Source of the DNA: Escherichia coli
GTDB lineage: Bacteria; Pseudomonadota; Gammaproteobacteria; Enterobacterales; Enterobacteriaceae
Assembly: GCF_041248615.1 (NCBI RefSeq)
Contig: NZ_CP158426.1
Length of the DNA stretch: 64,000 nt
Direction: 5' to 3' (one strand)
The number at the start of each line of letters is the position of its first letter. The first letter of the stretch is position 1. The position numbers and the translations under genes are program-made. The notes below the pieces were generated by a model. The model made no database searches. It saw only the letters and a list, made by a program, of their open reading frames with translations, and had not been told where the DNA came from. This document shows, piece after piece, positions 10,952 through 48,773 of this stretch.

Positions 10952-11044
10952 TATCGTTTTTAATTAACTGATTATTTATCTCATCACTGGGTGATGCTGC
11001 CAACTTACTGATTTAGTGTATGATGGTGTTTTTGAGGTGCTCCA

Positions 11045-11320: not shown

Positions 11321-11742
11321 CCTCGCGCATACAGCCGGGCAGTGACGTCATCGTCTGCGCGGAAATGGACGAACAGTGGGGATACGTCGGGGCTAAATCG
11401 CGCCAGCGCTGGCTGTTTTACGCGTATGACAGGCTCCGGAAGACGGTTGTTGCGCACGTATTCGGTGAACGCACTATGGCGACGCTGGGGCGTCTTATGA
11501 GCCTGCTGTCACCCTTTGACGTGGTGATATGGATGACGGATGGCTGGCCGCTGTATGAATCCCGCCTGAAGGGAAAGCTGCACGTAATCAGCAAGCGATA
11601 TACGCAGCGAATTGAGCGGCATAACCTGAATCTGAGGCAGCACCTGGCACGGCTGGGACGGAAGTCGCTGTCGTTCTCAAAATCGGTGGAGCTGCATGAC
11701 AAAGTCATCGGGCATTATCTGAACATAAAACACTATCAATAA
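11239..11742 (+). CDS. insB: IS1 InsB reading frame (expressed as InsAB' by -1 frameshift)
   Basis: 167-aa frame matching recalled IS1 InsB. Confidence 0.9.
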
Positions 11743-11792
11743 GTTGGAGTCATTACCCATCACTGAATATCTTTATATAGTGAGGACTTATT

Positions 11793-12617
11793 ATGTCTCA
11801 GAACTTAGACGCAACCGCAATTAATCAAATCCATGCCCTTATTTCTGCTCAGGGTGTTAATGAAATTATCAGTAAGATTGGTGCCGATGCTGTGGCATTG
11901 CCTGAGAATTTCCGCATTCATGATCTGGAAAAATTTAATTTAAATCGCTTCCGTTTCCGTGGTGCGCTTTCCACTGCCAGCATCGATGACTTTACCCGTT
12001 ATTCTAAAGATCTTGCAGATGAAGGCACCCGCTGCTTTATCGATGCTGATAATATGCGTGCCGTCAGTGTGCTTAACCTGGGTACTATTGATGAACCAGG
12101 TCACGCAGATAACACCGCCACACTCAAACTGAAAAAGACAGCACCGTTCTCTGCTCTGTTGTCTGTTAACGGCGAGCGTAACTCCCAGAAGTCACTGGCA
12201 GAATGGATTGAAGACTGGGCCGACTATCTTGTGGGCTTTGATGCTAATGGTGACGCTATTCAGGCAACAAAAGCGGCTGCGGCTGTCCGTAAAATCACGA
12301 TTGAAGCAAACCAGACCGCTGATTTTGAAGATAATGACTTCAGCGGCAAACGCTCCCTGATGGAGTCTGTCGAAGCGAAAACCAAAGACATTATGCCAGT
12401 GGCATTTGAATTTAAATGCGTTCCGTTTGAAGGCCTGAAAGAACGTCCGTTTAAATTACGCCTCAGCATTATCACTGGCGATCGTCCTGTACTGGTTCTG
12501 CGCATTATTCAGCTGGAAGCGGTGCAGGAAGAAATGGCTAACGAATTTCGTGATCTGCTTGTTGAGAAATTCAAAGACAGCAAAGTAGAAACCTTCATTG
12601 GTACTTTCAGCGCCTGA
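11793..12617 (+). CDS. yfdQ: YfdQ-like prophage protein (DUF2303)
   Basis: 274 aa, same length and gene context as recalled K-12 CPS-53 YfdQ. Confidence 0.7.
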
Positions 12618-12744
12618 TTTCATTACTGCAAATGCCCCTGCGGGGGCATTTATGGAAACATAATCGACTCAATAATCGCCGGATGGTGAGGGCTTCCTTT
12701 TACCAGAATTCAGCGTGGTGCAGCACATATACGTGGAGAACAAA

Positions 12745-13281
12745 ATGTCATTTATTAAAACTTTTTCTGGGAAGCATTTTTATTATGACAAGATAAATAA
12801 AGACGACATCGTGATTAACGATATCGCGGTTTCCCTTTCAAATATCTGTCGCTTTGCAGGACATCTTTCACACTTCTACAGCGTCGCCCAACATGCGGTG
12901 CTTTGCAGCCAACTGGTACCGCAGGAATTTGCTTTTGAAGCGTTAATGCATGATGCAACAGAAGCGTATTGTCAGGACATCCCCGCTCCACTGAAACGCC
13001 TTCTTCCTGACTATAAACGGATGGAAGAAAAAATAGACGCCGTAATCCGTGAGAAATACGGGTTACCCCCGGTTATGAGCACGCCTGTGAAATATGCCGA
13101 TCTCATCATGCTGGCAACTGAACGCCGCGAACTCGGGCTTGATGATGGCTCTTTCTGGCCAGTACTGGAAGGTATCCCGGCAACAGAGATGTTCAAAGTT
13201 ATTCCACTGGCTCCGGGTCATGCCTACGGGATGTTTATGGAACGTTTTAACGAGTTATCGGAGTTACGCAAATGCGCATGA
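12745..13281 (+). CDS. yfdR: YfdR-like HD-domain 5'-deoxynucleotidase (178 aa from ATG 12745)
   Basis: HD-domain residues (H...HD...D); GGAG SD; length matches K-12 YfdR. Confidence 0.75.
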   Translation: MSFIKTFSGKHFYYDKINKDDIVINDIAVSLSNICRFAGHLSHFYSVAQHAVLCSQLVPQEFAFEALMHDATEAYCQDIPAPLKRLLPDYKRMEEKIDAVIREKYGLPPVMSTPVKYADLIMLATERRELGLDDGSFWPVLEGIPATEMFKVIPLAPGHAYGMFMERFNELSELRKCA

Positions 13282-13634
13282 ATGTTTTCGAAATGGAAGG
13301 GTTTCTTCACGGGAGATGTGTACCACGAGACCTGAAAGTGAATGAAACGGATGCTGAATACCTGGTGCGTAAATTCGATGCGCTTGAAGCTAAATGTGCA
13401 GCACAGGAAAACAAAGTAATACCAGTATCAGTTGAACTGCCACCAGCAAATGAAAGTGTTCTGTTATTTGATGCTAACGGAGAAGGCTGGCTGATTGGCT
13501 GGCGTTCTCTCTGGTACACCTGGGGACAAAAAGAAACCGGAGAATGGCTGTGGACATTTCAGATCGGGGACCTTGAAAATATTAATATCACTCACTGGGC
13601 AGTAATGCCAAAAGCACCGGAGGCTGGAGCATAA
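13272..13634 (+). CDS. yfdS: YfdS-like prophage protein
   Basis: 120 aa, overlaps the yfdR stop; same order as CPS-53 yfdQRS. Confidence 0.6.
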   Translation: MRMNVFEMEGFLHGRCVPRDLKVNETDAEYLVRKFDALEAKCAAQENKVIPVSVELPPANESVLLFDANGEGWLIGWRSLWYTWGQKETGEWLWTFQIGDLENINITHWAVMPKAPEAGA

Positions 13635-14254
13635 TGACCACTTACACCGATAAGGAACAGATTAAAGAAATCAAAGAACGAATCGGCAGCCTAGACGTGC
13701 GAGACAATGTTGAGCGCCTTGCTTATGAAATTGCTCTGGCATCACTGGAAGCAGAGCCGGTGGCGTGGCTTCATTCAGACAATGGCTTAGGTATTCCGGC
13801 AATAACCAGGAGCAAAAACATTGCTGACAGTTGGTTATCAAAGGGCTGGTATATTCAGCCGCTATATATGGCTCAGCCAGTGTCGGTGGTGCCGGATGCT
13901 CTTCCGTCTTTAAATAATGGCATAGTCGGCTTTGATGAAGGCTGGAACGCCTGCCGCGCCGCCATGCTTCATGGTGCCAAACCTGTAAGCCAGACTTACA
14001 AGTTGAACGAGCTGTCGGGCAACTCTCCGGTAACTCCGGATGGTTGGATAAGCTGTAGTGAGCGAATGCCGAACGATAAACAGTATGTTTGGTGTTGGGG
14101 GAAGTCTTACGGCTGGACTGAGTGCGATACCTTCGAAGGGTATTACGATTGGTCGAGAAACAAATGGTGGGCAGTTACTGACGATGTGGAAGAACCGGCA
14201 TCGAAAGTAACCCACTGGATGCCGCTACCGGAGCCGCCGCAGGAGGTAAAGTAA
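13634..14254 (+). CDS. prophage protein with DUF551-like C-terminus (YfdT-position)
   Basis: 206 aa; C-terminal W-rich segment ending THWMPLPEPP; start overlaps the upstream stop. Confidence 0.45.
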   Translation: MTTYTDKEQIKEIKERIGSLDVRDNVERLAYEIALASLEAEPVAWLHSDNGLGIPAITRSKNIADSWLSKGWYIQPLYMAQPVSVVPDALPSLNNGIVGFDEGWNACRAAMLHGAKPVSQTYKLNELSGNSPVTPDGWISCSERMPNDKQYVWCWGKSYGWTECDTFEGYYDWSRNKWWAVTDDVEEPASKVTHWMPLPEPPQEVK

Positions 14255-14436
14255 TGAACAACTTAATGACAACTAAACAAGTCGCCAACTTCTGTGGAGT
14301 TTCAGTATCGACAGTTCTTCGCTGGAACAGCGTAAACAGGAGAACTGGCCAGAAATACAGGCCAGACTTTCCAGATCCTGATATTAAATCATGCCCAAAT
14401 AAATGGGCATCAGAGCCTGTACATAGATTTGTGTAA
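14254..14436 (+). CDS. AlpA/Xis-like HTH protein (putative excisionase or regulator)
   Basis: 60 aa; TTKQVANFCGVSVSTVLRW ... FPDP pattern resembling the AlpA/HTH_17 family. Confidence 0.45.
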   Translation: MNNLMTTKQVANFCGVSVSTVLRWNSVNRRTGQKYRPDFPDPDIKSCPNKWASEPVHRFV

Positions 14437-14484
14437 TTGCCTGATTTTGATATGTTCAATCCAGCATCAAATGAAGGTTAATTT

Positions 14485-15693
14485 ATGGACGAAAAACAGT
14501 TACAGGCTCTGGCTAACGAACTGGCCAAAAACCTCAAAACCCCTGAAGACCTCAGTCAGTTTGATCGGCTGCTGAAAAAGCTCAGCGTTGAAGCCGCTCT
14601 CAATGCAGAGATGACACACCATCTTGGGTATGAGAAAAATCAGTCCAGACCAGGAGCTAACTCCCGCAACGGTTATTCCACAAAGACCGTTATCACAGGC
14701 GACGGTCCACTGGAACTGCGTACTCCGCGCGATCGTGACGGTACCTTCGAACCACAACTGGTAAAGAAAAATCAGACCCGTATTACCGGGATGGATAACC
14801 AGATCCTCTCGTTGTATGCCAAAGGGATGACCACCCGTGAGATAGCCGCTGCGTTCAAAGAACTGTATGACGCAGATGTTTCACCGGCACTGATATCAAA
14901 GGTTACCGATGCCGTGATGGAGCAGGTTGTAGAATGGCAAAACCGACCACTGGATGCTGTTTACCCCATTGTTTATCTTGACTGTATCGTCCTGAAAGTT
15001 CGGCAGGACAGTCGCATCATCAACAAATCGGTGTTCCTGGCACTGGGCATCAATATCGAAGGTCAGAAAGAACTGCTGGGTATGTGGCTGGCCGAAAATG
15101 AAGGGGCGAAGTTCTGGCTCAATGTGCTGACTGAACTGAAAAACCGCGGTCTGAACGATATCCTCATCGCCTGTGTGGATGGCCTGAAAGGCTTCCCGGA
15201 TGCCATCAACACAGTATATCCGAAGGCCCGCATCCAGTTATGCATCGTGCATATGGTGCGCAACAGCCTGCGCTTCGTGTCATGGAAGGACTACAAAGCC
15301 GTCACTCGCGACCTGAAAGCGATTTATCAGGCTCCCACGGAAGAGGCAGGTCAGCAGGCACTGGAAGCGTTCGCTGCGGCCTGGGACAGTCGCTATCCTC
15401 AGATAAGCCGAAGCTGGCAGGCTAACTGGCCGAATCTTGCCACGTTCTTCGCTTATCCAACGGACATCCGCAAAGTGATCTATACGACGAATGCCATCGA
15501 GTCGCTAAACAGCGTGATCCGCCATGCGATCAAAAAGCGTAAAGTGTTCCCGACAGACGACTCGGTGAAAAAAGTGGTGTGGCTGGCAATCCAGTCTGCG
15601 TCCCAGAAATGGACGATGCCGTTGAAGGACTGGCGAATGGCAATGAGCCGCTTTATTATCGAGTTCGGTGACCGCCTGGACGGTCACTTCTGA
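14485..15693 (+). CDS. IS256-family (Mutator-type) transposase
   Basis: 402 aa; IS256-family transposase architecture recognised from recall; terminal inverted repeats of the element not resolved by eye. Confidence 0.85.
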   Translation: MDEKQLQALANELAKNLKTPEDLSQFDRLLKKLSVEAALNAEMTHHLGYEKNQSRPGANSRNGYSTKTVITGDGPLELRTPRDRDGTFEPQLVKKNQTRITGMDNQILSLYAKGMTTREIAAAFKELYDADVSPALISKVTDAVMEQVVEWQNRPLDAVYPIVYLDCIVLKVRQDSRIINKSVFLALGINIEGQKELLGMWLAENEGAKFWLNVLTELKNRGLNDILIACVDGLKGFPDAINTVYPKARIQLCIVHMVRNSLRFVSWKDYKAVTRDLKAIYQAPTEEAGQQALEAFAAAWDSRYPQISRSWQANWPNLATFFAYPTDIRKVIYTTNAIESLNSVIRHAIKKRKVFPTDDSVKKVVWLAIQSASQKWTMPLKDWRMAMSRFIIEFGDRLDGHF

Positions 15694-15878
15694 GAAAAGG
15701 CATTTACACAGAATCCTAAACAGGCTCGGGCATCACGCAAGATTTACAAATTTGCGGGAGTTATTGAGTAACGAGCATTAGCTCAGATGAGAGTTGGTAC
15801 ACCTATGGCACAGAGCTAAACCTGATCTGTTATATTCGCTCTGTGCCGGAAGTATGCCATATTTATTACATACAGTTG

Positions 15879-18011
15879 TCAATCTTTAAGACTAATTGTG
15901 ATTGCATCTGGAAATCCAATTTGGCTATAGCACATAGTTTCGGTTATGAATAATTTTCTATCGATAAAATCAAGTACATCTTTTTTCGTGAGCCCCGTTA
16001 ACATCGTCAATTTGTTAATTACATAATCATACCAATCATGGTGAAGCATGTTTATATACATGTTAATATCAACTGCATCTTTCTTCCATGAATTATTCGG
16101 TATCAAATCTTCAGATAAAAATCCTCTTATTAAATCGCTTGCATAGGACATCCTAAGAAAAACAGAAAGAAAAAGCCTTACATTAACATGTGTAAAATTT
16201 GTAGATAGCGTCGAAGGAAACTCGTAAAACCGGTAGATCAACCGACTTACAAAAACAGCAGAGTCTATCGCATTTACAGGCAGTAATGTTCCGATGACAC
16301 TTAATGCACCACTTATAACGAAGCCATTAGCAACAGAGGCATGAGAACCACTTAGGGCAGATGTTAAACATGCACTCAGAATTACGATAGGAGGAATTCT
16401 TGCTATTTTTCTCAAACTCCAAGTGTCCACTTTATCCTCACCTATTATTAACCATCCATGACTCCCATTGCCATCATGGTTTCCATGACAATCCATAACA
16501 AGAATATGACCTTGATATTGATTTAGAGCATCAATAAACTCAGCTTTCGATCTAACATCAATAATCTCGCAATCAAGATCTGGCATCTGTTTTTTAAATA
16601 TCTCAATTGCGTTCTCTAATATGAACTTTAAGTGATCATCAGGCTCAAAAGAACGTATAACTAAAACCTTTCTCAACTCAGATGCTTTTACTAAAACGCG
16701 CGGAAAAGCAGAGGCGCTCTGTAGAAGAACGTTACCAGGCGTAGCATTTATTCTTGATATCTCATGACTGAACATTATAGGTATGTTATTAAACCTAATC
16801 CAATCCAATGGTACATCACAAACAAAGGACAAATCGCTATAGTTTTTACTTATATATGTTCTCAACTTGCAACCAAGGGCTCTTCGAATAACAGTATTGA
16901 ATGCTTTAGATTTAGTGATGAATGCTTCACTATTTATCCCAGAAGAAGTTGCAAGATCTTCAAGATTTTTCAAATAATTGGAGTAATGATTTATTGCATT
17001 TGGCAATCTTATTGCTGGGATTTTTTTATTTATGCTAAATAAAGTAATCGCAGCTGTTGTTAATCGCATTTCAGCGCGTCTTAGTGAGGTGAGGTAACGG
17101 AAAGCAGGACTTTTAAAAAGTTCTTTTCTATCTGAATTTATATCAAGTCTAATTCCAGAATAGCCTGGATTCCTCAACACTCCATCAATAAGGAATTTTT
17201 TCTCAATTGTGGATAAATTTTCCGTTATTAACTCATAAAAGTCATTATTTTTATCATATAAAAAAGAGTGCATACCCGGAGCAAAAAGTAAGACTTCCGT
17301 TGGAAGTGGTATATCTAATTCCTTTAAACATTCGGTGTATGCATCAACGCTATGAAGTATTATTTCTATAAACTCTCTTTTGCTACTACCATCTTTAATT
17401 CTTTTTGGTGGAGATAGCATATAGCCAAGTGATTCAATTAACAACTCATTGGGTAGTGTTGAATTGTTAAGCGTCGATCTCCAAGGTGATTTATTAAATA
17501 AAGCCCCTCTTCGCTTCAACTTCGTTGATATTTTCTTTTCACTGTGATTTTTTCTTATTTTATCCTCAATGAATTTCAACCGAGAGAAGAGCACCTTATC
17601 AAATGAGTATATACTATTAATCTTATTAAGTGGTAGATCAGCGCGTTTAGAATTGCAACAAATTATAGGTGGTATAGCAAAATGTTTTTTTAAAGCACAA
17701 ACATACGAAAAATCTTCTTTAGCACAAAAAATTAAGCAAAATGGCGTTTGATAAATATTTGGTATTTTTTCAAGATTTTCTTTAGATATTAAAAAAATAG
17801 GATTTAGCCCGCTTAGAGTAGGCTGAAAGTTATCATTTTCACTGACAAAAATCTCACTAATTTCTTTTGGTGTTTTGGCCAATAAAAAAAGAATGTTGGA
17901 TATCTCTGGGTTGAGGAGGCCAGTATCGAAACCTTGGATTATGGTTTGTTCCCCAGTAGTAGGCATGATTACAACTTTAAGTATCGCCCCGTGTTCCTGT
18001 AACAGTTCCAT
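15879..18011 (-). CDS. CHAT/caspase-like protease-domain protein with large unassigned N-terminal region (710 aa from ATG 18011; track 729 aa to 18068)
   Basis: C-terminal ILVMDCHGNHD ... PPIVILSACLTSALSG His/Cys dyad context typical of CHAT (Peptidase C14-like); strongly AT-rich; AGGA SD before ATG 18011. Confidence 0.55.
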   Translation of the reverse strand: MELLQEHGAILKVVIMPTTGEQTIIQGFDTGLLNPEISNILFLLAKTPKEISEIFVSENDNFQPTLSGLNPIFLISKENLEKIPNIYQTPFCLIFCAKEDFSYVCALKKHFAIPPIICCNSKRADLPLNKINSIYSFDKVLFSRLKFIEDKIRKNHSEKKISTKLKRRGALFNKSPWRSTLNNSTLPNELLIESLGYMLSPPKRIKDGSSKREFIEIILHSVDAYTECLKELDIPLPTEVLLFAPGMHSFLYDKNNDFYELITENLSTIEKKFLIDGVLRNPGYSGIRLDINSDRKELFKSPAFRYLTSLRRAEMRLTTAAITLFSINKKIPAIRLPNAINHYSNYLKNLEDLATSSGINSEAFITKSKAFNTVIRRALGCKLRTYISKNYSDLSFVCDVPLDWIRFNNIPIMFSHEISRINATPGNVLLQSASAFPRVLVKASELRKVLVIRSFEPDDHLKFILENAIEIFKKQMPDLDCEIIDVRSKAEFIDALNQYQGHILVMDCHGNHDGNGSHGWLIIGEDKVDTWSLRKIARIPPIVILSACLTSALSGSHASVANGFVISGALSVIGTLLPVNAIDSAVFVSRLIYRFYEFPSTLSTNFTHVNVRLFLSVFLRMSYASDLIRGFLSEDLIPNNSWKKDAVDINMYINMLHHDWYDYVINKLTMLTGLTKKDVLDFIDRKLFITETMCYSQIGFPDAITISLKD

Positions 18012-35821: not shown

Positions 35822-35869
35822 ACTCCCTATGCCCGATAACATTTTGCTTATCGGGCATTTTTATGGCGA

Positions 35870-37534
35870 TTAAAACGTTTCCCAATTCTCGCCGCTATCT
35901 GCCACGGCCATTTTACGCGGCGTAGCTGGCGTCACGGTTTTTACTACAGCCGATGTTTCACGCTGCTGTTGCTGCTGTTGCTGAATCCGGAACACTGCCA
36001 CAGCTTCGGTCAGGCGACTGGCCTGCTCTTCCAGCGCGGCAGCGGCGGCGGCAGATTCTTCCACCAGCGCGGCGTTCTGTTGAGTTACCCGGTCCATCTC
36101 AGCAACCGCTAATCCAACCTGATCGATACCACGGCTCTGCTCATCAGAAGCAGAAGCAATTTCGCCCATAATGTCCGTCACGCGGGTCACGGCACTGACA
36201 ATCTCCGCCATTGTTTCCCCTGCGCTTTCGACCAGCGTAGAGCCAACATCCACTTTCCCCACCGAGTCTTCAATCAGGCTTTTAATTTCACGAGCCGCCT
36301 GGGCGCTGCGCTGGGCCAGATTACGCACTTCTCCCGCGACCACCGCAAAACCGCGCCCTTGCTCACCCGCGCGCGCTGCTTCAACCGCCGCGTTCAAAGC
36401 CAGAATATTGGTCTGGAAGGCAATGCCGTCAATTACGCTGATAATATCGGCGATTTTCTGCGAACTGGTGGAGATATCGCGCATAGTCTGCACCACGTTA
36501 TCCACCACTTTGCCGCCGCGTTGCGCCGTTTCAGAAGCACTTAACGCCAGCTGGCTGGCCTGGCGCGCATTTTCGGCGTTCTGCTTCACCGTTGCGGTCA
36601 GTTGCTCCATGCTGGCTGCCGTCTCTTCCAGCGAAGCGGCCTGTTGCTCGGTGCGCGAAGAGAGATCGTTATTACCGGTGGCGATTTCGCTGGCACCGCT
36701 ATAGATGGCATTGGCCCCGTTGCGCACATCACCGACGGTACGCATCAGCTCTCCCTGCATATGGCGCAAACTCTCTGCCAGTTGCCCCATCTCATTAGAG
36801 CCATCTACCTCAATCGGTTTCACCAGATCGCCGCCTGCAATATGACGAATGCTGTCAATCAGGCGATTCATTGGCGCTACCAACGAGGCTTTAATACCGA
36901 ACCAGACGGCGAAGATGACCGCCAGTACGACGATCATCACGCCCACCAGGATCCACATCGCCTGGCTGTAGGAGGCATTATTATCGCTGACGGCGATATC
37001 ATAGAGCCGATCGTTTTGCTCCATGTAAGCCACATACTGCTTCTCGAAACCGTCCTGATATCCCTGGGTCGGCTGATCAAAGAACTCGTTGATTTTGCCT
37101 GCACCTAACAGTTGGATCAGCTCCGCCAGCGCATTGTGATAAATATCGTAATTACGTTTGATCTCTGCCGCTGCGGCGGTGCTCTGACGCGGGTCACGCG
37201 GCAACGCTTCGTAATCCGCCCAGTTTTTTTCCGCCTGTTTCAGCGAAATACTGGCACTCTGCATCAGCTCAGCAACGGTTGAACCGCTACCAATATTATT
37301 CTGATCCATCATGTAGCGGATACCCGCGCGGTTGAGGGTGTTACGCGTCTGCAACAACGCAACCCAGCTGCCATTCAGCGTGGATTGCTGCTGGCGAATG
37401 GTTTGTAAAACAGTGAAATTTTCTTTGTCATTCTTTAAGGCATTAAAGAACAGACCGCCTGATGTCAGTTGTAAAAGGCCAAAAACGGCCAAAACCAGCA
37501 GTAAGCTGGTCACAATTTTGATACGTTTTAACAT
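35870..37534 (-). CDS. tsr: serine chemoreceptor Tsr (554 aa; Gln run is 3 residues longer than the recalled K-12 protein)
   Basis: MCP with HAMP and methylation motifs, C-terminal NWETF; matches recalled Tsr. Confidence 0.95.
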
Positions 37535-37652: not shown

Positions 37653-38099
37653 TTATTCATTATCGCCCGGGATGTCTTCTTGTCGGGAATTACCCAGAGC
37701 AATAAATTCCTCTAACAGATGGGTTAACTGTTGCATTTTCTCGGCAGTAAACTGAGCTTCAATCTGCCGATAGGCTTCTTCAATCTGTGTCTGAGCGCGG
37801 TTATACAGGGCCTGCCCCTCTTTGGTCAGCGAGATATAGAGCTTCCGCTGATCATTGATCGGCTTTAATCGCAACACTAAACCGTCGCGTTCCATCCGCG
37901 TGAGGATCCCGGTCAGGCTTGGGCGCAAAATGCAGGCGCGATACGCCAGATCGTGAAAATCCATTGATGGGCTTTCCGCCAGAATACGCACGATGCGCCA
38001 CTGTTGCTCAGTCAAATTATGCCGTTTAACGATTGGGCGAAAATAACTCATCGCCGCTTCTCGCGCCTGGAGCAACGCAATGGTTAGTGAGTCGTGCAT
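37653..38099 (-). CDS. hpaR: MarR-family repressor HpaR (148 aa from ATG 38099)
   Basis: MHDSLTIALLQAREAAMSYFRP... MarR wHTH; divergent from hpaG. Confidence 0.85.
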   Translation of the reverse strand: MHDSLTIALLQAREAAMSYFRPIVKRHNLTEQQWRIVRILAESPSMDFHDLAYRACILRPSLTGILTRMERDGLVLRLKPINDQRKLYISLTKEGQALYNRAQTQIEEAYRQIEAQFTAEKMQQLTHLLEEFIALGNSRQEDIPGDNE

Positions 38100-38370
38100 T
38101 ATCTTTCCCCTGAAAAATTCAAAATCATTAATATAGAAACAGTTAATCATCACATTACTGGGACTGAGCTATCCCCGCAATTCCTCATTTTATCAAAATT
38201 GAGCATACTTTATTAACTTACTGATATTTAGTATTTTATTACCTGCAAATGTAAATAGTTTGTTAATTGGATCACATTTACATCACTTACTTTTGCCAAA
38301 CTTCGCAATCGGGAATAAAAGTAATCATTAACATATTAATGATTAAAATGATCGAATCCGAGGAGTGGTA

Positions 38371-39660
38371 ATGAAAGGCACTATCTTCGCCGTAGCGTTG
38401 AACCATCGCAGCCAGCTTGATGCATGGCAGGAAGCGTTCCAGCAATCCCCCTACAAAGCCCCGCCTAAAACTGCGGTCTGGTTTATTAAACCGCGCAATA
38501 CGGTGATTGGTTGCGGTGAACCGATTCCCTTTCCACAGGGTGAAAAAGTACTGAGCGGTGCGACTGTTGCGCTGATTGTGGGGAAAACGGCGACGAAAGT
38601 ACGTGAAGAAGATGCGGCAGAGTACATCGCCGGATATGCGCTGGCTAACGACGTCAGCCTGCCGGAAGAGAGCTTTTACCGCCCGGCAATCAAAGCAAAA
38701 TGTCGTGATGGATTCTGCCCCATTGGCGAAACCGTGGCTCCCAGCAATGTCGATAATCTGACTATCTATACCGAGATCAACGGGCGTCCTGCCGATCATT
38801 GGAACACCGCCGATTTACAACGTAACGCCGCGCAGTTGCTGAGCGCTCTGAGCGAATTTGCCACGCTGAATCCAGGCGATGCCATTCTGCTCGGCACGCC
38901 ACAGGCGCGCGTGGAAATACAGCCAGGCGATCGCGTGCGTGTTCTCGCAGAAGGTTTCCCGCCACTGGAAAATCCGGTAGTGGACGAACGTGAAGTGACC
39001 ACGCGCAAGAGCTTCCCAACGCAGCCACACCCGCACGGCACGCTGTTTGCCCTCGGCCTGAACTACGCCGACCACGCCAGCGAACTGGAATTTAAGCCAC
39101 CGGAAGAACCGCTGGTGTTCCTGAAAGCGCCGAATACCCTCACTGGCGATAACCAGACCTCCGTGCGCCCGAACAATATTGAATACATGCACTACGAAGC
39201 GGAGCTGGTGGTAGTTATTGGCAAGCAGGCGCGTAACGTCAGCGAAGCCGATGCCATGGATTATGTCGCGGGCTACACCGTGTGTAACGACTACGCCATT
39301 CGCGACTATCTGGAAAACTACTACCGCCCTAACCTGCGGGTAAAAAGCCGCGACGGACTGACGCCGATGCTTTCAACCATCGTGCCGAAAGAGGCGATCC
39401 CGGACCCGCATAATCTGACCCTTCGCACCTTCGTCAACGGCGAGTTACGCCAGCAAGGCACCACCGCCGATCTGATCTTCAGCGTGCCCTTCCTGATCGC
39501 CTACTTAAGCGAATTTATGACCCTGAATCCGGGCGACATGATCGCCACCGGCACACCAAAAGGCTTATCTGACGTGGTGCCTGGCGATGAAGTAGTGGTG
39601 GAAGTAGAAGGCGTGGGCCGCCTGGTGAACCGAATTGTGAGTGAGGAAACAGCGAAATGA
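38371..39660 (+). CDS. hpaG: bifunctional OPET decarboxylase / HHDD isomerase HpaG (429 aa, ATG 38371)
   Basis: tandem FAH-family domains; AGGAG SD; first gene of the hpa meta-cleavage operon. Confidence 0.9.
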   Translation: MKGTIFAVALNHRSQLDAWQEAFQQSPYKAPPKTAVWFIKPRNTVIGCGEPIPFPQGEKVLSGATVALIVGKTATKVREEDAAEYIAGYALANDVSLPEESFYRPAIKAKCRDGFCPIGETVAPSNVDNLTIYTEINGRPADHWNTADLQRNAAQLLSALSEFATLNPGDAILLGTPQARVEIQPGDRVRVLAEGFPPLENPVVDEREVTTRKSFPTQPHPHGTLFALGLNYADHASELEFKPPEEPLVFLKAPNTLTGDNQTSVRPNNIEYMHYEAELVVVIGKQARNVSEADAMDYVAGYTVCNDYAIRDYLENYYRPNLRVKSRDGLTPMLSTIVPKEAIPDPHNLTLRTFVNGELRQQGTTADLIFSVPFLIAYLSEFMTLNPGDMIATGTPKGLSDVVPGDEVVVEVEGVGRLVNRIVSEETAK

Positions 39661-41123
39661 AAAAAGTAAATCATTGGATCAACGGCAAAAATGTTGCAGG
39701 TAACGACTACTTCCAGACCACCAATCCGGCAACGGGTGAAGTGCTGGCAGATGTGGCCTCCGGCGGTGAAGCGGAGATCAATCAGGCGGTAGCGGCAGCG
39801 AAAGAGGCGTTCCCGAAATGGGCCAATCTGCCGATGAAAGAGCGTGCGCGCCTGATGCGCCGTCTGGGCGATCTGATCGACCAGAACGTGCCTGAGATCG
39901 CCGCGATGGAAACCGCGGACACGGGCCTGCCGATCCATCAGACCAAAAATGTATTGATCCCACGCGCTTCTCACAACTTTGAATTTTTCGCGGAAGTCTG
40001 CCAGCAGATGAACGGCAAGACCTATCCGGTTGACGACAAGATGCTCAACTACACGCTGGTGCAACCGGTAGGCGTTTGTGCGCTGGTATCGCCGTGGAAC
40101 GTGCCGTTTATGACCGCCACATGGAAGGTCGCGCCGTGTCTGGCGCTGGGCAATACCGCGGTGTTGAAAATGTCGGAACTCTCCCCGCTGACCGCTGACC
40201 GCCTGGGTGAGCTGGCGCTGGAAGCCGGTATTCCGGCGGGCGTGCTGAACGTGGTACAGGGCTACGGCGCAACCGCAGGCGATGCGCTGGTTCGTCATCA
40301 TGACGTACGTGCCGTGTCGTTCACCGGCGGTACGGCCACCGGGCGCAACATCATGAAAAACGCCGGGCTGAAAAAATACTCCATGGAACTGGGCGGTAAA
40401 TCGCCGGTGCTGATTTTTGAAGATGCCGATATTGAACGCGCGCTGGACGCTGCCCTGTTCACCATCTTCTCGATCAACGGCGAGCGCTGCACCGCCGGTT
40501 CGCGCATCTTTATTCAGCAAAGCATCTACCCGGAATTCGTTAAACGCTTTGCCGAACGCGCCAACCGTCTGCGCGTGGGCGATCCGAACGATCCGAATAC
40601 CCAGGTTGGGGCGCTTATCAGCCAGCAACACTGGGAAAAAGTCTCCGGCTATATTCGTCTCGGCATTGAAGAAGGCGCAACCCTGCTAGCGGGCGGTCCG
40701 GATAAACCGTCCGACCTGCCTGCGCACCTGAAAGGCGGCAACTTCCTGCGCCCAACGGTGCTGGCTGACGTTGATAACCGTATGCGCGTCGCCCAGGAAG
40801 AGATTTTCGGGCCGGTCGCCTGTCTGCTGCCGTTTAAAGACGAAGCTGAAGGTCTGCGCCTGGCAAATGACGTGGAGTATGGCCTCGCGTCGTACATCTG
40901 GACGCAGGATGTCAGCAAAGTGTTACGCCTGGCGCGTGGCATTGAAGCAGGCATGGTGTTCGTCAACACCCAGAACGTGCGCGACCTGCGCCAGCCGTTT
41001 GGCGGCGTAAAAGCCTCCGGCACCGGGCGTGAAGGCGGTGAGTACAGCTTCGAAGTGTTCGCGGAAATGAAGAACGTCTGCATTTCCATGGGCGACCATC
41101 CAATTCCGAAATGGGGAGTCTGA
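39657..41123 (+). CDS. hpaE: 5-carboxymethyl-2-hydroxymuconate semialdehyde dehydrogenase HpaE
   Basis: 488 aa aldehyde dehydrogenase (catalytic Cys in GERCTAGS, ELGGKSP). Confidence 0.9.
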   Translation: MKKVNHWINGKNVAGNDYFQTTNPATGEVLADVASGGEAEINQAVAAAKEAFPKWANLPMKERARLMRRLGDLIDQNVPEIAAMETADTGLPIHQTKNVLIPRASHNFEFFAEVCQQMNGKTYPVDDKMLNYTLVQPVGVCALVSPWNVPFMTATWKVAPCLALGNTAVLKMSELSPLTADRLGELALEAGIPAGVLNVVQGYGATAGDALVRHHDVRAVSFTGGTATGRNIMKNAGLKKYSMELGGKSPVLIFEDADIERALDAALFTIFSINGERCTAGSRIFIQQSIYPEFVKRFAERANRLRVGDPNDPNTQVGALISQQHWEKVSGYIRLGIEEGATLLAGGPDKPSDLPAHLKGGNFLRPTVLADVDNRMRVAQEEIFGPVACLLPFKDEAEGLRLANDVEYGLASYIWTQDVSKVLRLARGIEAGMVFVNTQNVRDLRQPFGGVKASGTGREGGEYSFEVFAEMKNVCISMGDHPIPKWGV

Positions 41124-41124
41124 T

Positions 41125-41976
41125 ATGGGTAAGTTAGCGTTAGCCGCCAAAATCACGCACGTACCGTCGATGTATCTCTCTGAACTGCCAGGGAAAAACC
41201 ACGGTTGCCGCCAGGGTGCGATCGACGGGCATAAAGAGATCAGCAAGCGTTGCCGGGAAATGGGCGTCGATACCATTATCGTTTTCGATACTCACTGGCT
41301 GGTCAACAGTGCTTATCACATCAACTGTGCAGACCATTTTGAAGGCGTCTACACCAGTAACGAGCTGCCGCATTTTATTCGTGACATGACCTACAACTAC
41401 GAGGGCAACCCGGAGTTGGGGCAGCTTATTGCCGATGAAGCGTTAAAACTCGGCGTGCGGGCAAAAGCGCACAATATTCCCAGCCTGAAACTGGAATACG
41501 GCACGCTGGTGCCAATGCGCTACATGAATGAAGACAAGCACTTCAAAGTGGTCTCCATTTCGGCTTTCTGCACGGTTCACGATTTTGCCGACAGCCGCAA
41601 GCTTGGCGAAGCGATTTTGAAAGCAATCGAACAGTACGACGGCACCGTGGCGGTCCTTGCCAGCGGTTCGTTATCGCACCGCTTTATTGACGATCAGCGT
41701 GCAGAAGAAGGGATGAACAGCTACACCCGCGAGTTCGACCGCCAGATGGACGAGCGCGTGGTGAAGCTGTGGCGCGAAGGCCAGTTCAAAGAGTTCTGCA
41801 ATATGCTGCCGGAGTACGCCGACTACTGCTACGGCGAAGGCAATATGCACGACACGGTGATGCTGCTGGGGATGCTCGGCTGGGATAAATACGACGGCAA
41901 GGTGGAGTTTATTACCGAGCTGTTCCCAAGCTCTGGCACCGGTCAGGTTAACGCTGTTTTCCCGCTTCCCGCGTAA
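41125..41976 (+). CDS. hpaD: homoprotocatechuate 2,3-dioxygenase HpaD
   Basis: 283 aa extradiol dioxygenase in conserved hpa order. Confidence 0.9.
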   Translation: MGKLALAAKITHVPSMYLSELPGKNHGCRQGAIDGHKEISKRCREMGVDTIIVFDTHWLVNSAYHINCADHFEGVYTSNELPHFIRDMTYNYEGNPELGQLIADEALKLGVRAKAHNIPSLKLEYGTLVPMRYMNEDKHFKVVSISAFCTVHDFADSRKLGEAILKAIEQYDGTVAVLASGSLSHRFIDDQRAEEGMNSYTREFDRQMDERVVKLWREGQFKEFCNMLPEYADYCYGEGNMHDTVMLLGMLGWDKYDGKVEFITELFPSSGTGQVNAVFPLPA

Positions 41977-41985
41977 GGAACCACC

Positions 41986-42366
41986 ATGCCGCACTTTATC
42001 GTGGAATGTACTGAAAATATTCGTCAAGAAGCCCGCTTACCTGAGCTGTTTGCCAGTGTTAACACCGCACTGGCGGCGACGGGGATTTTTCCGCTTGGGG
42101 GAATACGTAGCCGGGCGCACTGGATCGATACCTGGCAAATGGCTGATGGCAAGCACGATTACGCCTTTGTGCATATGACGCTAAAAATCGGCAGCGGGCG
42201 CAGTCTGGAAAGCCGTCAGGAAGTAGGCGAAATGCTGTTTGATCTGATTAAAACGCACTTCGCCTCACTGATGGAGAGCCGTTACCTGGCGCTTTCATTT
42301 GAGATTGCAGAGCTGCACCCGACGTTGAATTTCAAACAGAACAACGTACACGCGTTGTTTAAATAA
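41986..42366 (+). CDS. hpaF: 5-carboxymethyl-2-hydroxymuconate isomerase HpaF
   Basis: 126 aa, [12 protein letters not shown]... CHMI family. Confidence 0.9.
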
Positions 42367-42433
42367 ATTTGTACCAGCTTCCAGGCCGGATGATAAGGCG
42401 CAGCCGCATCCGGCAATGCCACAGGATATCGCC

Positions 42434-43237
42434 ATGTTCGATAAACACACCCACACCCTGATCGCCCAGCGTCTGGATCAGGCAGAAAAACAGCGCGAAC
42501 AGATCCGCGCGATCTCGCTGGATTACCCGGAGATCACCATCGAAGACGCCTACGCCGTACAGCGCGAATGGGTCCGCCTGAAAATTGCCGAAGGCCGTAC
42601 GCTGAAAGGCCACAAAATCGGCCTGACCTCAAAAGCGATGCAGGCAAGCTCGCAGATCAGCGAACCGGATTACGGCGCACTGCTGGACGACATGTTCTTC
42701 CACGATGGCAGCGATATCCCGACCGATCGCTTTATCGTGCCGCGCATTGAAGTGGAGCTGGCTTTTGTGCTGGCAAAACCGCTGCGTGGGCCAAACTGCA
42801 CGCTGTTCGACGTTTACAACGCCACGGACTACGTGATCCCGGCACTGGAGCTGATCGACGCTCGCTGCCACAACATCGATCCGGAAACCCAGCGCCCGCG
42901 CAAAGTATTCGACACCATTTCCGATAATGCCGCCAACGCCGGAGTGATCCTCGGCGGTCGTCCCATTAAGCCCGATGAGTTGGATCTACGTTGGATCTCC
43001 GCCCTGATGTATCGCAACGGCGTGATTGAAGAAACCGGCGTCGCCGCTGGCGTGCTGAATCACCCGGCAAACGGCGTGGCCTGGCTGGCGAACAAACTCG
43101 CACCGTATGACGTGCAACTGGAAGCCGGGCAAATCATTCTCGGCGGTTCGTTCACCCGCCCGGTTCCGGCGCGTAAGGGCGACACCTTCCACGTCGATTA
43201 CGGCAACATGGGTTCCATTAGCTGCCGCTTTGTTTAA
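42434..43237 (+). CDS. hpaH: 2-oxo-hept-3-ene-1,7-dioate hydratase HpaH (267 aa)
   Basis: hydratase family; start set to ATG 42434. Confidence 0.85.
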
Positions 43238-43247
43238 GGAGAGAACG

Positions 43248-44036
43248 ATGGAAAACAGTTTTAAAGCGGCGCTGAAAGCAGGCCGTCCGCAGATCGGATT
43301 ATGGCTGGGGCTGAGCAGCAGCTACAGCGCAGAGTTACTGGCCGGAGCAGGATTCGACTGGTTATTGATCGACGGTGAGCACGCGCCGAATAACGTGCAA
43401 ACCGTGCTCACCCAGCTACAGGCGATTGCGCCCTACCCCAGCCAGCCGGTAGTACGTCCGTCGTGGAACGATCCGGTGCAAATCAAACAACTGCTGGACG
43501 TCGGCACACAAACCTTACTGGTGCCGATGGTTCAAAACGCTGACGAAGCCCGTGAAGCGGTACGCGCCACCCGTTATCCCCCCGCCGGTATTCGCGGTGT
43601 GGGCAGTGCGCTGGCCCGCGCCTCGCGCTGGAATCGCATTCCTGATTACCTGCAAAAAGCCAACGATCAAATGTGCGTACTGGTGCAGATCGAAACTCGT
43701 GAGGCAATGAAGAACCTACCGCAGATTCTGGACGTGGAAGGGGTAGACGGCGTGTTTATCGGCCCGGCGGATCTGAGCGCCGATATGGGTTATGCCGGTA
43801 ATCCGCAGCACCCGGAAGTGCAGGCCGCCATTGAACAGGCGATCGTGCAAATCCGTGAAGCGGGCAAAGCTCCGGGGATCCTGATCGCCAATGAGCAACT
43901 GGCAAAACGCTACCTGGAACTGGGCGCGCTATTTGTCGCCGTCGGCGTTGACACCACCCTGCTCGCCCGCGCCGCCGAAGCGCTGGCAGCACGGTTTGGC
44001 GCGCAGGCCACGACCGTTAAGCCCGGCGTGTATTAA
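43248..44036 (+). CDS. hpaI: 2,4-dihydroxyhept-2-ene-1,7-dioate aldolase HpaI (262 aa)
   Basis: [20 protein letters not shown]...; class II aldolase; ORF-track upstream extension rejected. Confidence 0.9.
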
Positions 44037-44043
44037 TGCTGAA

Positions 44044-44108
44044 TGCGCTTATCCGGCTTACAGCAGTACCAAACTGTAGCCGGATAAGGCGTTTACGCCG
44101 CATCCGCC
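44044..44108. repeat. REP/BIME element
   Basis: GCGCTTATCCGGCTTACA ... TGTAGCCGGATAAGGCGTTTACGCCGCATCCG palindromic units. Confidence 0.7.
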
Positions 44109-44153
44109 ATAAATCTTGTCGTACCCTACAAAAATCCCATTAGAGGAAGAAAA

Positions 44154-45530
44154 ATGAGCGACACCTCACCTGCCATACCGGAAAGTATCGATCCGGCAAA
44201 TCAGCATAAAACGCTGACTGCCGGACAACAGGCGGTTATTAAGAAGCTATTTCGCCGCCTGATCGTCTTTCTGTTCGTGCTGTTTATCTTCTCGTTCCTT
44301 GATCGCATCAACATCGGCTTTGCCGGGCTAACGATGGGACGCGACCTCGGTCTGAGCGCCACCATGTTTGGCCTCGCCACCACCCTGTTCTATGCCGCTT
44401 ATGTCATCTTCGGCATTCCCAGCAACATTATGCTGAGTATTGTCGGTGCGCGGCGCTGGATCGCCACCATCATGGTGCTCTGGGGCATCGCCTCTACGGC
44501 CACCATGTTTGCCACTGGCCCCACCAGCTTATACGTACTGCGTATACTGGTTGGCATTACCGAAGCCGGCTTTCTGCCTGGCATTCTGCTGTATTTAACC
44601 TTCTGGTTTCCGGCCTATTTCCGCGCCCGTGCCAACGCCTTGTTTATGGTAGCAATGCCGGTAACGACAGCGCTGGGATCGATCGTTTCCGGCTACATTT
44701 TGTCGCTGGATGGCGTAATGGCATTAAAAGGCTGGCAGTGGCTGTTTTTGCTGGAAGGCTTCCCGTCGGTATTACTCGGCGTCATGGTGTGGTTCTGGCT
44801 TGATGACTCACCGGACAAAGCTAAGTGGCTGACGAAAGAAGACAAAAAATGCCTGCAAGAGATGATGGATAACGATCGTCTGACGCTGGTTCAGCCAGAG
44901 GGAGCCATCAGTCACCACGCCATGCAACAACGCAGCATGTGGCGGGAGATCTTCACTCCGGTGGTGATGATGTATACCCTGGCGTATTTCTGCCTGACCA
45001 ACACACTTAGTGCAATCAGCATCTGGACACCGCAGATCCTACAAAGCTTTAATCAGGGCAGCAGTAATATCACCATCGGCCTGCTGGCCGCCGTACCGCA
45101 GATTTGTACCATTCTCGGGATGATCTACTGGAGCCGTCACTCAGATCGCCGCCAGGAACGAAGGCATCACACCGCCCTTCCTTATTTGTTCGCTGCCGCT
45201 GGTTGGTTACTGGCTTCGGCAACTGATCACAACATGATCCAGATGCTGGGGATCATTATGGCTTCGACCGGATCATTCAGCGCAATGGCGATTTTCTGGA
45301 CAACACCGGATCAGTCCATCAGCCTGCGGGCACGAGCGATCGGTATTGCGGTGATCAACGCCACTGGCAACATTGGTTCAGCGTTAAGTCCGTTTATAAT
45401 CGGCTGGTTGAAAGATCTGACCGGCAGCTTTAACAGTGGATTGTGGTTTGTTGCCGCGCTGCTGGTGATTGGTGCGGGGATTATCTGGGCAATTCCAATG
45501 CAGTCCTCCCGTCCGCGAGCGACCCCGTAA
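44154..45530 (+). CDS. hpaX: MFS 4-hydroxyphenylacetate permease HpaX
   Basis: 458 aa, 12-TM MFS in the hpa cluster. Confidence 0.9.
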   Translation: MSDTSPAIPESIDPANQHKTLTAGQQAVIKKLFRRLIVFLFVLFIFSFLDRINIGFAGLTMGRDLGLSATMFGLATTLFYAAYVIFGIPSNIMLSIVGARRWIATIMVLWGIASTATMFATGPTSLYVLRILVGITEAGFLPGILLYLTFWFPAYFRARANALFMVAMPVTTALGSIVSGYILSLDGVMALKGWQWLFLLEGFPSVLLGVMVWFWLDDSPDKAKWLTKEDKKCLQEMMDNDRLTLVQPEGAISHHAMQQRSMWREIFTPVVMMYTLAYFCLTNTLSAISIWTPQILQSFNQGSSNITIGLLAAVPQICTILGMIYWSRHSDRRQERRHHTALPYLFAAAGWLLASATDHNMIQMLGIIMASTGSFSAMAIFWTTPDQSISLRARAIGIAVINATGNIGSALSPFIIGWLKDLTGSFNSGLWFVAALLVIGAGIIWAIPMQSSRPRATP

Positions 45531-45539
45531 GGAACGACG

Positions 45540-46430
45540 ATGTGTGACCGTCAGATTGCCAATATTGATATCAGCAAAGAGTACGATGAAAGCCTGGGCA
45601 CGGACGATGTGCATTATCAGTCCTTCGCCCGCATGGCGGCATTTTTTGGCCGCCATATGCTGCCACATCGCCACGAACAGTACTTTCAGATGCATTTCCT
45701 CAATAGCGGACAGATTGAGCTACAGCTTGACGATCATCGCTACTCGGTGGAAGCGCCCCTGTTTGTCCTGACGCCGCCGTCAGTACCTCATGCGTTTATT
45801 ACGGAGTCTGACGCCGACGGTCATGTGTTGACGGTACGGGAAGATCTGATCTGGCCCCTGCTGGAAGTTCTTTATCCGGGCACTCGGGAAACCTTCGGCC
45901 TGCCGGGGATTTGCCTGTCACTGGCAGATAAACCCGACGAACTGGCAGCGCTGGAACACTATTGGCAACTGATAGAGCGGGAATCGGTGGAACAACTGCC
46001 TGGACGGGAACACACCCTGACGTTACTGGCACAGGCAGTATTCACCCTACTGCTGCGTAACGCAAAACTCGACGACCATGCCGCCAGCGGGATGCGCGGA
46101 GAATTAAAACTGTTCCAGCGTTTTAATATGCTGATTGAAAGCCATTTTCATCAGCACTGGACAGTACCGGATTACGCTAACGAACTGCATATCACCGAAT
46201 CACGTCTCACGGACATCTGCCGCCGCTTTGCCAACCGTCCGCCAAAACGGTTGATTTTCGACAGGCAGCTGCGAGAAGCCAAGCGGCTGCTGCTGTTTTC
46301 TGATAACGCCGTGAACAATATTGCCTGGCAACTCGGTTTTAAGGATCCGGCTTATTTTGCGCGCTTTTTTAATCGTTTAGTCGGTTGCTCGCCCAGTGCT
46401 TATCGTGCCAAAAAAGTACCTGTGACGTGA
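45540..46430 (+). CDS. hpaA: AraC-family activator HpaA
   Basis: 296 aa with C-terminal AraC HTH. Confidence 0.9.
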   Translation: MCDRQIANIDISKEYDESLGTDDVHYQSFARMAAFFGRHMLPHRHEQYFQMHFLNSGQIELQLDDHRYSVEAPLFVLTPPSVPHAFITESDADGHVLTVREDLIWPLLEVLYPGTRETFGLPGICLSLADKPDELAALEHYWQLIERESVEQLPGREHTLTLLAQAVFTLLLRNAKLDDHAASGMRGELKLFQRFNMLIESHFHQHWTVPDYANELHITESRLTDICRRFANRPPKRLIFDRQLREAKRLLLFSDNAVNNIAWQLGFKDPAYFARFFNRLVGCSPSAYRAKKVPVT

Positions 46431-46680
46431 AAATCCCTTAGCCTTAACGGGAAACCAGGCACCACCTGCTATTCCCCTTTCTCCGCCTGGAGCAAGGGGA
46501 TTTAGTAACGTCAAAAATCGCTAAAAGCGACCTCGATCACAAAACCGTACCCGACCTGAAAAGTACCAGCCATTGTCCCAAAAGTGTCTTCCCGTAATCG
46601 CCCCTGCAAGCTTCAATTGAATAACAAAAACAACACACAAAATTAACAATCGTATTCCGATTAATACTGTAGAGGTCGAC

Positions 46681-48243
46681 ATGAAACCAGAAGATTTCCG
46701 CGCCAGTACCCAACGTCCGTTCACCGGGGAAGAGTATCTGAAAAGCCTGCAGGATGGTCGCGAGATCTATATCTACGGCGAGCGAGTGAAAGACGTCACC
46801 ACTCATCCGGCATTTCGTAATGCGGCAGCGTCTGTTGCCCAACTGTACGACGCGCTGCACAAACCGGAGATGCAGGACTCTCTGTGTTGGAATACCGACA
46901 CCGGCAGTGGCGGCTATACCCATAAATTCTTCCGCGTGGCGAAAAGTGCCGACGACCTGCGCCAGCAACGCGATGCCATCGCTGAATGGTCACGCCTGAG
47001 CTATGGCTGGATGGGCCGTACCCCAGACTACAAAGCCGCTTTCGGTTGCGCACTGGGCGCGAATCCGGGCTTTTACGGTCAGTTCGAGCAGAACGCCCGT
47101 AACTGGTACACCCGTATTCAGGAAACTGGCCTCTACTTTAACCACGCGATTGTTAACCCACCGATCGATCGTCATTTGCCGACCGATAAAGTGAAAGACG
47201 TTTACATCAAGCTGGAAAAAGAGACTGACGCCGGGATTATCGTCAGCGGTGCGAAAGTGGTTGCCACCAACTCGGCGCTGACTCACTACAACATGATTGG
47301 CTTCGGCTCGGCACAAGTGATGGGCGAAAACCCGGACTTCGCACTGATGTTCGTTGCGCCAATGGATGCCGATGGCGTGAAATTAATCTCCCGCGCCTCT
47401 TATGAGATGGTCGCGGGTGCTACCGGCTCGCCGTACGACTACCCGCTCTCCAGCCGCTTCGATGAGAACGATGCGATTCTGGTGATGGATAACGTGCTGA
47501 TCCCATGGGAAAACGTGCTGATCTACCGCGATTTTGATCGCTGCCGTCGCTGGACGATGGAAGGCGGTTTCGCCCGTATGTATCCGCTGCAAGCCTGTGT
47601 GCGCCTGGCAGTGAAACTCGACTTCATTACGGCACTGCTGAAAAAATCACTCGAATGTACCGGCACCCTGGAGTTCCGTGGTGTGCAGGCCGATCTCGGT
47701 GAAGTGGTGGCGTGGCGCAACACCTTCTGGGCATTGAGTGACTCGATGTGTTCAGAAGCGACGCCGTGGGTCAACGGGGCTTATTTACCGGATCATGCCG
47801 CACTGCAAACCTATCGCGTACTGGCACCAATGGCCTATGCGAAGATCAAAAACATTATCGAACGCAACGTTACCAGTGGCCTGATCTATCTCCCTTCCAG
47901 TGCCCGTGACCTGAACAATCCGCAGATCGACCAGTATCTGGCGAAGTATGTGCGCGGTTCGAATGGTATGGATCACGTCCAGCGCATCAAGATCCTCAAA
48001 CTGATGTGGGACGCCATTGGCAGCGAGTTTGGTGGTCGTCACGAACTGTATGAAATCAACTACTCCGGTAGCCAGGATGAGATTCGCCTGCAATGTCTGC
48101 GCCAGGCACAAAGCTCCGGCAATATGGACAAGATGATGGCGATGGTTGATCGCTGCCTGTCGGAATACGACCAGAACGGCTGGACTGTGCCACACCTGCA
48201 CAACAACGACGATATCAACATGCTGGATAAGCTGCTGAAATAA
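46681..48243 (+). CDS. hpaB: 4-hydroxyphenylacetate 3-monooxygenase oxygenase component HpaB
   Basis: 520 aa two-component flavin-dependent monooxygenase. Confidence 0.95.
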   Translation: MKPEDFRASTQRPFTGEEYLKSLQDGREIYIYGERVKDVTTHPAFRNAAASVAQLYDALHKPEMQDSLCWNTDTGSGGYTHKFFRVAKSADDLRQQRDAIAEWSRLSYGWMGRTPDYKAAFGCALGANPGFYGQFEQNARNWYTRIQETGLYFNHAIVNPPIDRHLPTDKVKDVYIKLEKETDAGIIVSGAKVVATNSALTHYNMIGFGSAQVMGENPDFALMFVAPMDADGVKLISRASYEMVAGATGSPYDYPLSSRFDENDAILVMDNVLIPWENVLIYRDFDRCRRWTMEGGFARMYPLQACVRLAVKLDFITALLKKSLECTGTLEFRGVQADLGEVVAWRNTFWALSDSMCSEATPWVNGAYLPDHAALQTYRVLAPMAYAKIKNIIERNVTSGLIYLPSSARDLNNPQIDQYLAKYVRGSNGMDHVQRIKILKLMWDAIGSEFGGRHELYEINYSGSQDEIRLQCLRQAQSSGNMDKMMAMVDRCLSEYDQNGWTVPHLHNNDDINMLDKLLK

Positions 48244-48260
48244 CGCAGCAGGAGGTTAAG

Positions 48261-48773
48261 ATGCAATTAGATGAACAACGCCAGCGCTTTCGTGACGCAA
48301 TGGCCAGCCTGTCGGCAGCGGTAAATATTATCACCACCGAGGGCGACGCCGGACAATGCGGGATTACGGCAACGGCTGTCTGCTCGGTCACGGACACACC
48401 ACCGTCGCTGATGGTGTGCATTAACGCCAACAGTGCGATGAACCCGGTTTTTCAGGGCAACGGCAAGTTGTGCGTCAACGTCCTCAACCATGAGCAGGAA
48501 CTGATGGCACGCCACTTCGCGGGCATGACAGGCATGGCGATGGAAGAGCGTTTTAGCCTCTCATGCTGGCAAAAAGGTCCGCTGGCGCAGCCGGTGCTAA
48601 AAGGTTCGCTGGCCAGTCTTGAAGGTGAGATCCGCGATGTGCAGGCAATTGGCACACATCTGGTGTATCTGGTGGAGATTAAAAACATCATCCTCAGTGC
48701 AGAAGGTCACGGACTTATCTACTTTAAACGCCGTTTCCATCCGGTGATGCTGGAAATGGAAGCTGCGATTTAA
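48261..48773 (+). CDS. hpaC: NAD(P)H-flavin reductase HpaC
   Basis: 170 aa flavin reductase following hpaB. Confidence 0.95.
   Translation: MQLDEQRQRFRDAMASLSAAVNIITTEGDAGQCGITATAVCSVTDTPPSLMVCINANSAMNPVFQGNGKLCVNVLNHEQELMARHFAGMTGMAMEERFSLSCWQKGPLAQPVLKGSLASLEGEIRDVQAIGTHLVYLVEIKNIILSAEGHGLIYFKRRFHPVMLEMEAAI

Follow-up and report, generated by a model that had tools for sequence, protein, structure and literature searches.

Results

The tsr locus

The window, the whole stretch of 64,000 nucleotides of Escherichia coli DNA that was analysed (contig NZ_CP158426.1), carries on its minus strand, at 35870..37534, the coding sequence of the serine chemoreceptor gene tsr (MCP-I), 554 aa plus stop; the assignment comes from the open reading frame listing, the profile NF011615 and an annotated identical gene. 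The NCBIfam equivalog NF011615 matched the open reading frame from residue 1 to residue 554, along the whole 554-position profile, with 1223.1 bits (cut-off 947), whereas the competing Tar and citrate-transducer models scored 754 and 710 bits respectively, both below their own cut-offs of 900 bits. In NZ_OW967178.1 a gene annotated as tsr, flanked by lgoT and hpaR, is 100% identical to that of the window. In the window, lgoT lies 48 bp downstream of tsr, the same neighbour as in K-12 and in most of the fetched genomes. Alignment with K-12 showed that NWETF is present at the C-terminus and that the methylation-site residues Q297, E304, Q311, E493 and E502 are unchanged (numbering of K-12 Tsr). 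Profile, pentapeptide, methylation residues and lgoT neighbour are thus all as expected, and by these sequence criteria the open reading frame is an ordinary Tsr. Identity of at least 99% to this particular tsr allele was found in only 17 of 5387 genomes.

From window to K-12 (window numbering) the substitutions are Q92E, Y178H, Q328H, T538A and G548E. Codon 328 (about 36551–36553) encodes Q in the window and H in K-12 as well as in the other two aligned strains, and residues 538 and 548, both in the C-terminal tether, are T and G in the window against A and E in K-12.

The flanks of tsr also show variation. Between lgoT and tsr, which converge and are 48 bp apart, lies a hairpin with an 11 bp stem followed by TTTTT (35829–35858, plus strand), consistent with an intrinsic terminator of lgoT that is possibly bidirectional. 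In APEC IMT5155, 21AR0133, DE17, UPEC957C and MS20674 a TRAP transporter large permease gene replaces lgoT downstream of tsr; because of this replacement in those five strains, the 3' flank of tsr is a junction that varies between lineages. On the upstream side btsT follows directly in K-12, whereas in the window the hpa (4-hydroxyphenylacetate) catabolic cluster, hpaR to hpaC (37653–48773), which K-12 lacks, lies between tsr and btsT.

Elsewhere in the window, positions 1–19592 are non-collinear with isolate 362, to which the sequence is otherwise 99.98% identical. This segment resembles the terminal part of a lambdoid prophage, with the 5' end of prfC as its insertion site. Its genes include those for a tyrosine integrase (18145–19362) and a Q antiterminator (1729–2481), as well as KilA-N and DUF968 genes. 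The 5.5 kb stretch 15000–20500 is 100% identical to NZ_LT599825.1, and only 31 genomes have a match that spans 80% or more of it. Adjoining the integrase, a minus-strand gene (15879–18068) encodes a 729 aa protein with a weak match to the caspase-like CHAT domain, possibly a cargo or defence gene. Just beyond it lies an IS256-family (IS1414) transposase gene (14485–15693, plus strand); the IS1414 insertion is absent from the other genomes carrying the prophage element.

The glutamine run and its repeat structure

Residues 518–524 of the window Tsr are encoded by CAG CAA CAG CAG CAA CAG CAG (35963..35983, minus strand), read directly from the sequence, and the seven consecutive glutamine codons of the original prediction are therefore confirmed. 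With 44 Gln among 554 residues and independent draws, the expected number of runs of at least seven Gln is 1.1e-5; the run is therefore not due to chance.

The run had been described as a short trinucleotide repeat prone to slippage. A short repeat is indeed present, but its period is not three. The tract consists of 2.33 copies of the 9 bp unit CAGCAACAG, or, put otherwise, of the 12 nt sequence CAGCAACAGCAG repeated directly 9 nt further on. Over 35962–35983, Tandem Repeats Finder reported a period of 3 with 78% matches and a period of 9 (2.4 copies) with 100% matches. Within the 21 nt tract the 3 bp register gave mismatches at 4 of 18 comparisons and the 6 bp register at 3 of 15, while all 12 of 12 matched in the 9 bp register; the 3 bp register is imperfect because of the CAA interruptions. 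As length differences among the sampled alleles are confined to 9 bp steps, and the period-3 match is 78%, a (CAG)n trinucleotide slippage tract was ruled out, and the unit of instability appears from the sequence to be 9 bp rather than 3 bp. A phase-variable contingency locus was ruled out too, since the 9 bp unit lies within the coding sequence and alleles of 1656, 1665 and 1674 bp all keep the reading frame and the NWETF end.

tsr contains a second repeat, GCGGCA in 3.2 copies (36036–36054), which supplies the minus-strand codons for Ala495–Ala500; the AAAAAA run that it encodes falls between the methylation sites E493 and E502. In strain PSS-08-1, whose tsr is 2 SNPs from that of Nissle 1917, 6 bp (two Ala) are missing from this run. 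Such a deletion in the methylation helix would shift the coiled-coil register and may impair the receptor; alternatively, the 6 bp loss could be an assembly error.

The run opens the C-terminal tether of the receptor. Conservation in the kinase-control domain ends with residue 517 (PMC4692393), and this residue, I517, is where the published tether count starts (PMC10561060). In the window this non-conserved flexible linker comprises residues 518–549 (35888..35983, minus strand), 32 residues as compared with 29 in K-12, and it leads to the NWETF pentapeptide (35873..35887, minus strand, from the translation). NWETF does not vary across the aligned E. coli sequences; it binds CheR and CheB and holds both near the methylation sites (PMC4692393). 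Among 80 orthologues conservation stops after ...AVAVFRI(QQ). Placement of the run in the linker before NWETF was therefore upheld, the run beginning after I517 at the point where orthologue conservation breaks. Published EPR and truncation evidence likewise puts the run where helix and tether meet. The run forms the first stretch of a disordered tether that extends from I517, where the cytoplasmic helical bundle stops, to NWETF, the tether being 29, 32 or 35 residues long in alleles with four, seven or ten codons.

The possibility that the glutamines serve as CheB deamidation/methylation sites was rejected, the run lying beyond the last conserved helix residue. The known Tsr methylation sites, 297, 304, 311, 493 and 502, include none within the run.

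Allele frequencies in E. coli

In K-12 (GM4792, WP_000919536.1) the run is CAG CAA CAG CAG, in a gene of 1656 bp that encodes 551 aa. The four Gln given for K-12 Tsr in the original prediction are thus correct; window and K-12 are exactly one 9 bp unit apart at the run, and the length polymorphism of Tsr relative to K-12 is real.

A seven-codon query of 97 nt gave BLAST matches of at least 95% identity in 4059 of 5342 complete E. coli genomes, and the remaining 1283 matched it with the identity expected for a 9 bp gap. The four-codon query gave the mirror result (1286 genomes with at least 95% identity, 4053 at 80–90%). With the ten-codon query 68 genomes were found, including LF82, NRG 857C and HS, at E<=1e-38, a threshold that admitted only near-full-length matches, four-codon genomes otherwise giving two joined pieces of 100% identity. 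Taken from BLAST identity bands and samples rather than from per-genome extraction, the shares among the 5342 complete genomes are about 76% for the seven-codon, about 23% for the four-codon and about 1.3% for the ten-codon allele, leaving about six genomes at most outside these classes, which could hold 3 or 6 bp variants. Samples drawn at even steps through the rankings gave whole-gene matches of only 1665, 1656 and 1674 bp, apart from one of 1659 bp caused by an unrelated Ala-run deletion, and the corresponding short queries measured 97, 88 and 106 nt. Laboratory K-12 derivatives (RR1, J53, DHB4, BW25113) are among the sampled four-codon genomes, so the figure of 23% exceeds the natural four-codon frequency.

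Most E. coli tsr genes carry the seven-codon run, which is the normal allele and ordinary natural variation, and K-12 is the odd form. The original prediction had implied an unusual, longer run in the window; this is not so, since its length is that of about 76% of 5342 genomes and of the outgroups. The proposed comparison with reference Tsr proteins gave an answer that depends on the reference, as most RefSeq E. coli Tsr carry the same Gln count and K-12 does not. Long-read assemblies do sometimes miscall short repeats, from which a seven-codon length might arise as a sequencing or assembly artefact. However, the same 21 nt tract recurs across thousands of independent complete genomes, and the lengths fall into three discrete classes 9 bp apart, unlike errors of the homopolymer type; we give the artefact practically no credence.

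Ancestral length

A scan with one genome per species yielded 80 Tsr orthologues from other Enterobacteriaceae, with E. coli, E. albertii and E. fergusonii representatives absent among the loci returned. The modal length of these proteins is 554 aa, and the segment from the conserved ...AVAVFRx to the pentapeptide has 32 residues in 47 of the 80 and 31–33 in 71. A linker of 29 residues, the K-12 length, occurs in two Trabulsiella species only, whose tail differs. The tail typically begins QQ[E/D]QQ[K/R]A, within an overall pattern FRI-QQxQQ[KR], and no orthologue among the 80 has a Gln run longer than three. One related sequence, on a contig labelled Chryseobacterium sp. 18061 (CACSKA010000015.1), is a typical enterobacterial Tsr, 78% identical and ending in NWETF; contamination or a wrong assembly label is the probable reason.

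The closest outgroups, Escherichia sp. E1V33 and the divergent 'E. coli'-labelled SCPM-O-B-8794 (93–94% identity), both have a tail of the form FRIQQ[T/A]QQRQHEALPVVKTVTP... (FRI-QQ[T/A]QQRQ-HEALPVVKTVTP... when written in segments), which aligns to the window allele without a gap. Because these tails are collinear with the window allele, the seven-codon length is ancestral and the K-12 form a derived 9 bp deletion, with no expansion in the window. This polarity is based on the two cryptic Escherichia outgroups, the more distant genera and the within-species tree. It fixes the ancestral state for the length of the run; the codon string inside the run is a separate matter. QQxQQRQ has become a pure Gln tract in E. 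coli, from which three codons were then lost in K-12.

The opposite polarity, in which four Gln, as in K-12, came first and a duplicated 9 bp unit brought the run to seven, draws on the standing of K-12 as the textbook reference and on the ten-codon alleles, which show that 9 bp gains do occur. We consider it very unlikely. Seven codons are found in about 76% of genomes and on every major branch sampled, outgroup Tsr is 554 aa long with a 32-residue linker collinear with the seven-codon allele, four-codon alleles are nested beside seven-codon sisters, and the four-codon tract has almost no 9 bp homology from which to duplicate.

Recurrent changes of length

A neighbour-joining tree of 19 E. 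coli tsr genes, rooted on the two outgroups and calculated without bootstrap support, placed four-codon alleles beside seven-codon sisters in several positions: N25 beside Sanji (2 SNPs), APEC IMT5155 and DE17 beside UPEC957C (6 SNPs) and UC4316 beside O121:H19 (7 SNPs). Four-codon alleles of different backgrounds are separated from one another by 23–37 SNPs; closer four-codon pairs share a background (APEC IMT5155/DE17, 0 SNPs; K-12/SCU-118, 12 SNPs). In all, four or more distinct local haplotypes carry the four-codon allele, and each has a seven-codon sister beside it. These patterns indicate at least three or four independent 9 bp losses, as read from the alignments, with UC4316 ambiguous.

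A single origin of the four-codon allele, followed by its spread to other tsr backgrounds through homologous recombination, would also place it on several haplotypes. E. coli recombines, the tsr SNP table is mosaic, so that some four-codon backgrounds could reflect recombination, and in UC4316 the SNPs to either side of the run are K-12-like. In N25, APEC IMT5155/DE17 and 21AR0133, however, SNPs that belong to the strain's own background, or are private to it, persist within 6–25 nt of the run, and there these strains differ from K-12. Because flanking SNPs are kept this close, import of a K-12 segment would need a tract of less than about 60 nt. The independent ten-codon alleles, moreover, show repeated mutation at the site, and we judge a single origin to be unlikely.

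Gains show a similar pattern. ET350 carries a pure Q10 run on an O157-like background, and JNEC-KY177 a ten-codon derivative of the QQQQQHQ type, QQQQQQQQHQ, on a CAT-bearing background; CUVET21-1780 has a CAT-bearing seven-codon allele, QQQQQHQ. The JNEC-KY177 allele derives from a CAT-bearing seven-codon allele like that of CUVET21-1780. Strains LF82 and HS have ten-codon alleles too, and on this comparison ten-codon alleles have more than one origin.

Discussion

The genomes themselves show the repeat, how common each allele is, which length came first and that the change recurs; the slippage mechanism and the near-neutral effect are inferred. We regard it as highly probable that the majority seven-codon allele is ancestral, that its length changes by 9 bp slippage, that loss of the K-12 type recurs and that the resulting variation in the tether is near-neutral.

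Slippage or misalignment between the two overlapping 12 nt copies would remove or add one 9 bp unit in frame, and such steps would generate the series of four, seven and ten codons. The tract that is left after a loss, CAG CAA CAG CAG, retains 3 nt of homology in the 9 bp register. Because only these 3 nt remain, reversion from four codons should be rare, and the short allele may accumulate as in a ratchet.

The consequences for the receptor can be gauged from published work on tether length. When Tar tethers were engineered to 22, 29, 34 and 46 residues, the peak of tethered CheR shifted by 0.128 +/- 0.048 nm per residue, and the spacing of methylation sites in Tsr is about 1.05 nm (PMC10561060). 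A change of three residues is predicted to move the peak of the tethered enzyme by about 0.4 nm. Because this shift is small relative to the site spacing, the natural variation in tether length probably has a small effect on adaptation and is close to neutral.

Tether length could instead be under selection, the 29-, 32- and 35-residue alleles tuning the reach of CheR and CheB and being kept by niche-specific selection on serine adaptation. Linker lengths of 22, 29, 34 and 46 residues in Tar measurably alter adaptation behaviour (PMC10561060), linker length among the orthologues is tight (31–33 residues in 71 of 80), and the short allele stands at about 23% on several backgrounds. The predicted shift of about 0.4 nm for three residues is nevertheless small as compared with the site spacing, a mutational ratchet alone would also yield frequent recurrence, and the sampled genomes show no association with host or source. 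Selection of this kind therefore seems improbable to us, and we are equally doubtful of the related idea that the natural 9 bp steps (29/32/35) act as a recurrent tuning knob for the sampling of methylation sites by CheR and CheB. If tuning did occur, serine adaptation kinetics in wild E. coli would differ from those of K-12, and models calibrated on K-12 would be using an atypical, derived tether.

The biological weight of the window allele is low: Tsr in RefSeq commonly has this form, and what varies is the length of a disordered tail, by a short insertion or deletion that keeps the frame. The seven-codon allele is already known in the sense that it is annotated in thousands of public genomes and that the curated profile has 554 positions. 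A literature search for the Tsr Gln run or for natural tsr length polymorphism returned nothing relevant, which is weak evidence given that subscription journals were mostly outside its scope. The result matters more for the reference strain: K-12 Tsr, the basis of nearly all chemotaxis experiments and models, carries a derived three-residue deletion in the tether for CheR and CheB. The Tsr tether has been described as shorter than that of Tar, 30 as compared with 34 residues, and this difference has been related to methylation-site geometry (PMC10561060). By the same counting, roughly three in four E. coli genomes encode a Tsr tether of 33 residues, almost the length in Tar. Since most E. coli Tsr tethers are of this length, the argument from tether geometry holds for K-12 and not for the species.

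K-12 Tsr itself is the closest point of comparison. It is the same gene with the same lgoT neighbour and architecture, about 99% identical in amino acid sequence, and identical in NWETF and the methylation residues, but its Gln run is shorter (4, as compared with 7 in the window), and so is its tether (29 residues as compared with 32). More generally, the tail conforms to the linker and pentapeptide at the C-termini of Tar and Tsr, a non-conserved segment of about 30 residues from the helical bundle to NWETF, and in such linkers length, rather than composition, matters (PMC4692393, PMC10561060). The published tether experiments differ in that they used engineered Tar or single-chain Tsr and larger changes; here the changes are natural and amount to +/-3 residues. 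As a mutational system, the run resembles bacterial in-frame SSR indels produced by slipped-strand mispairing, in which whole units are gained or lost, recurring on independent backgrounds. It differs from contingency loci in that the tsr unit is a multiple of three and lies in a disordered tail, so that only length changes and there is no off-switch.
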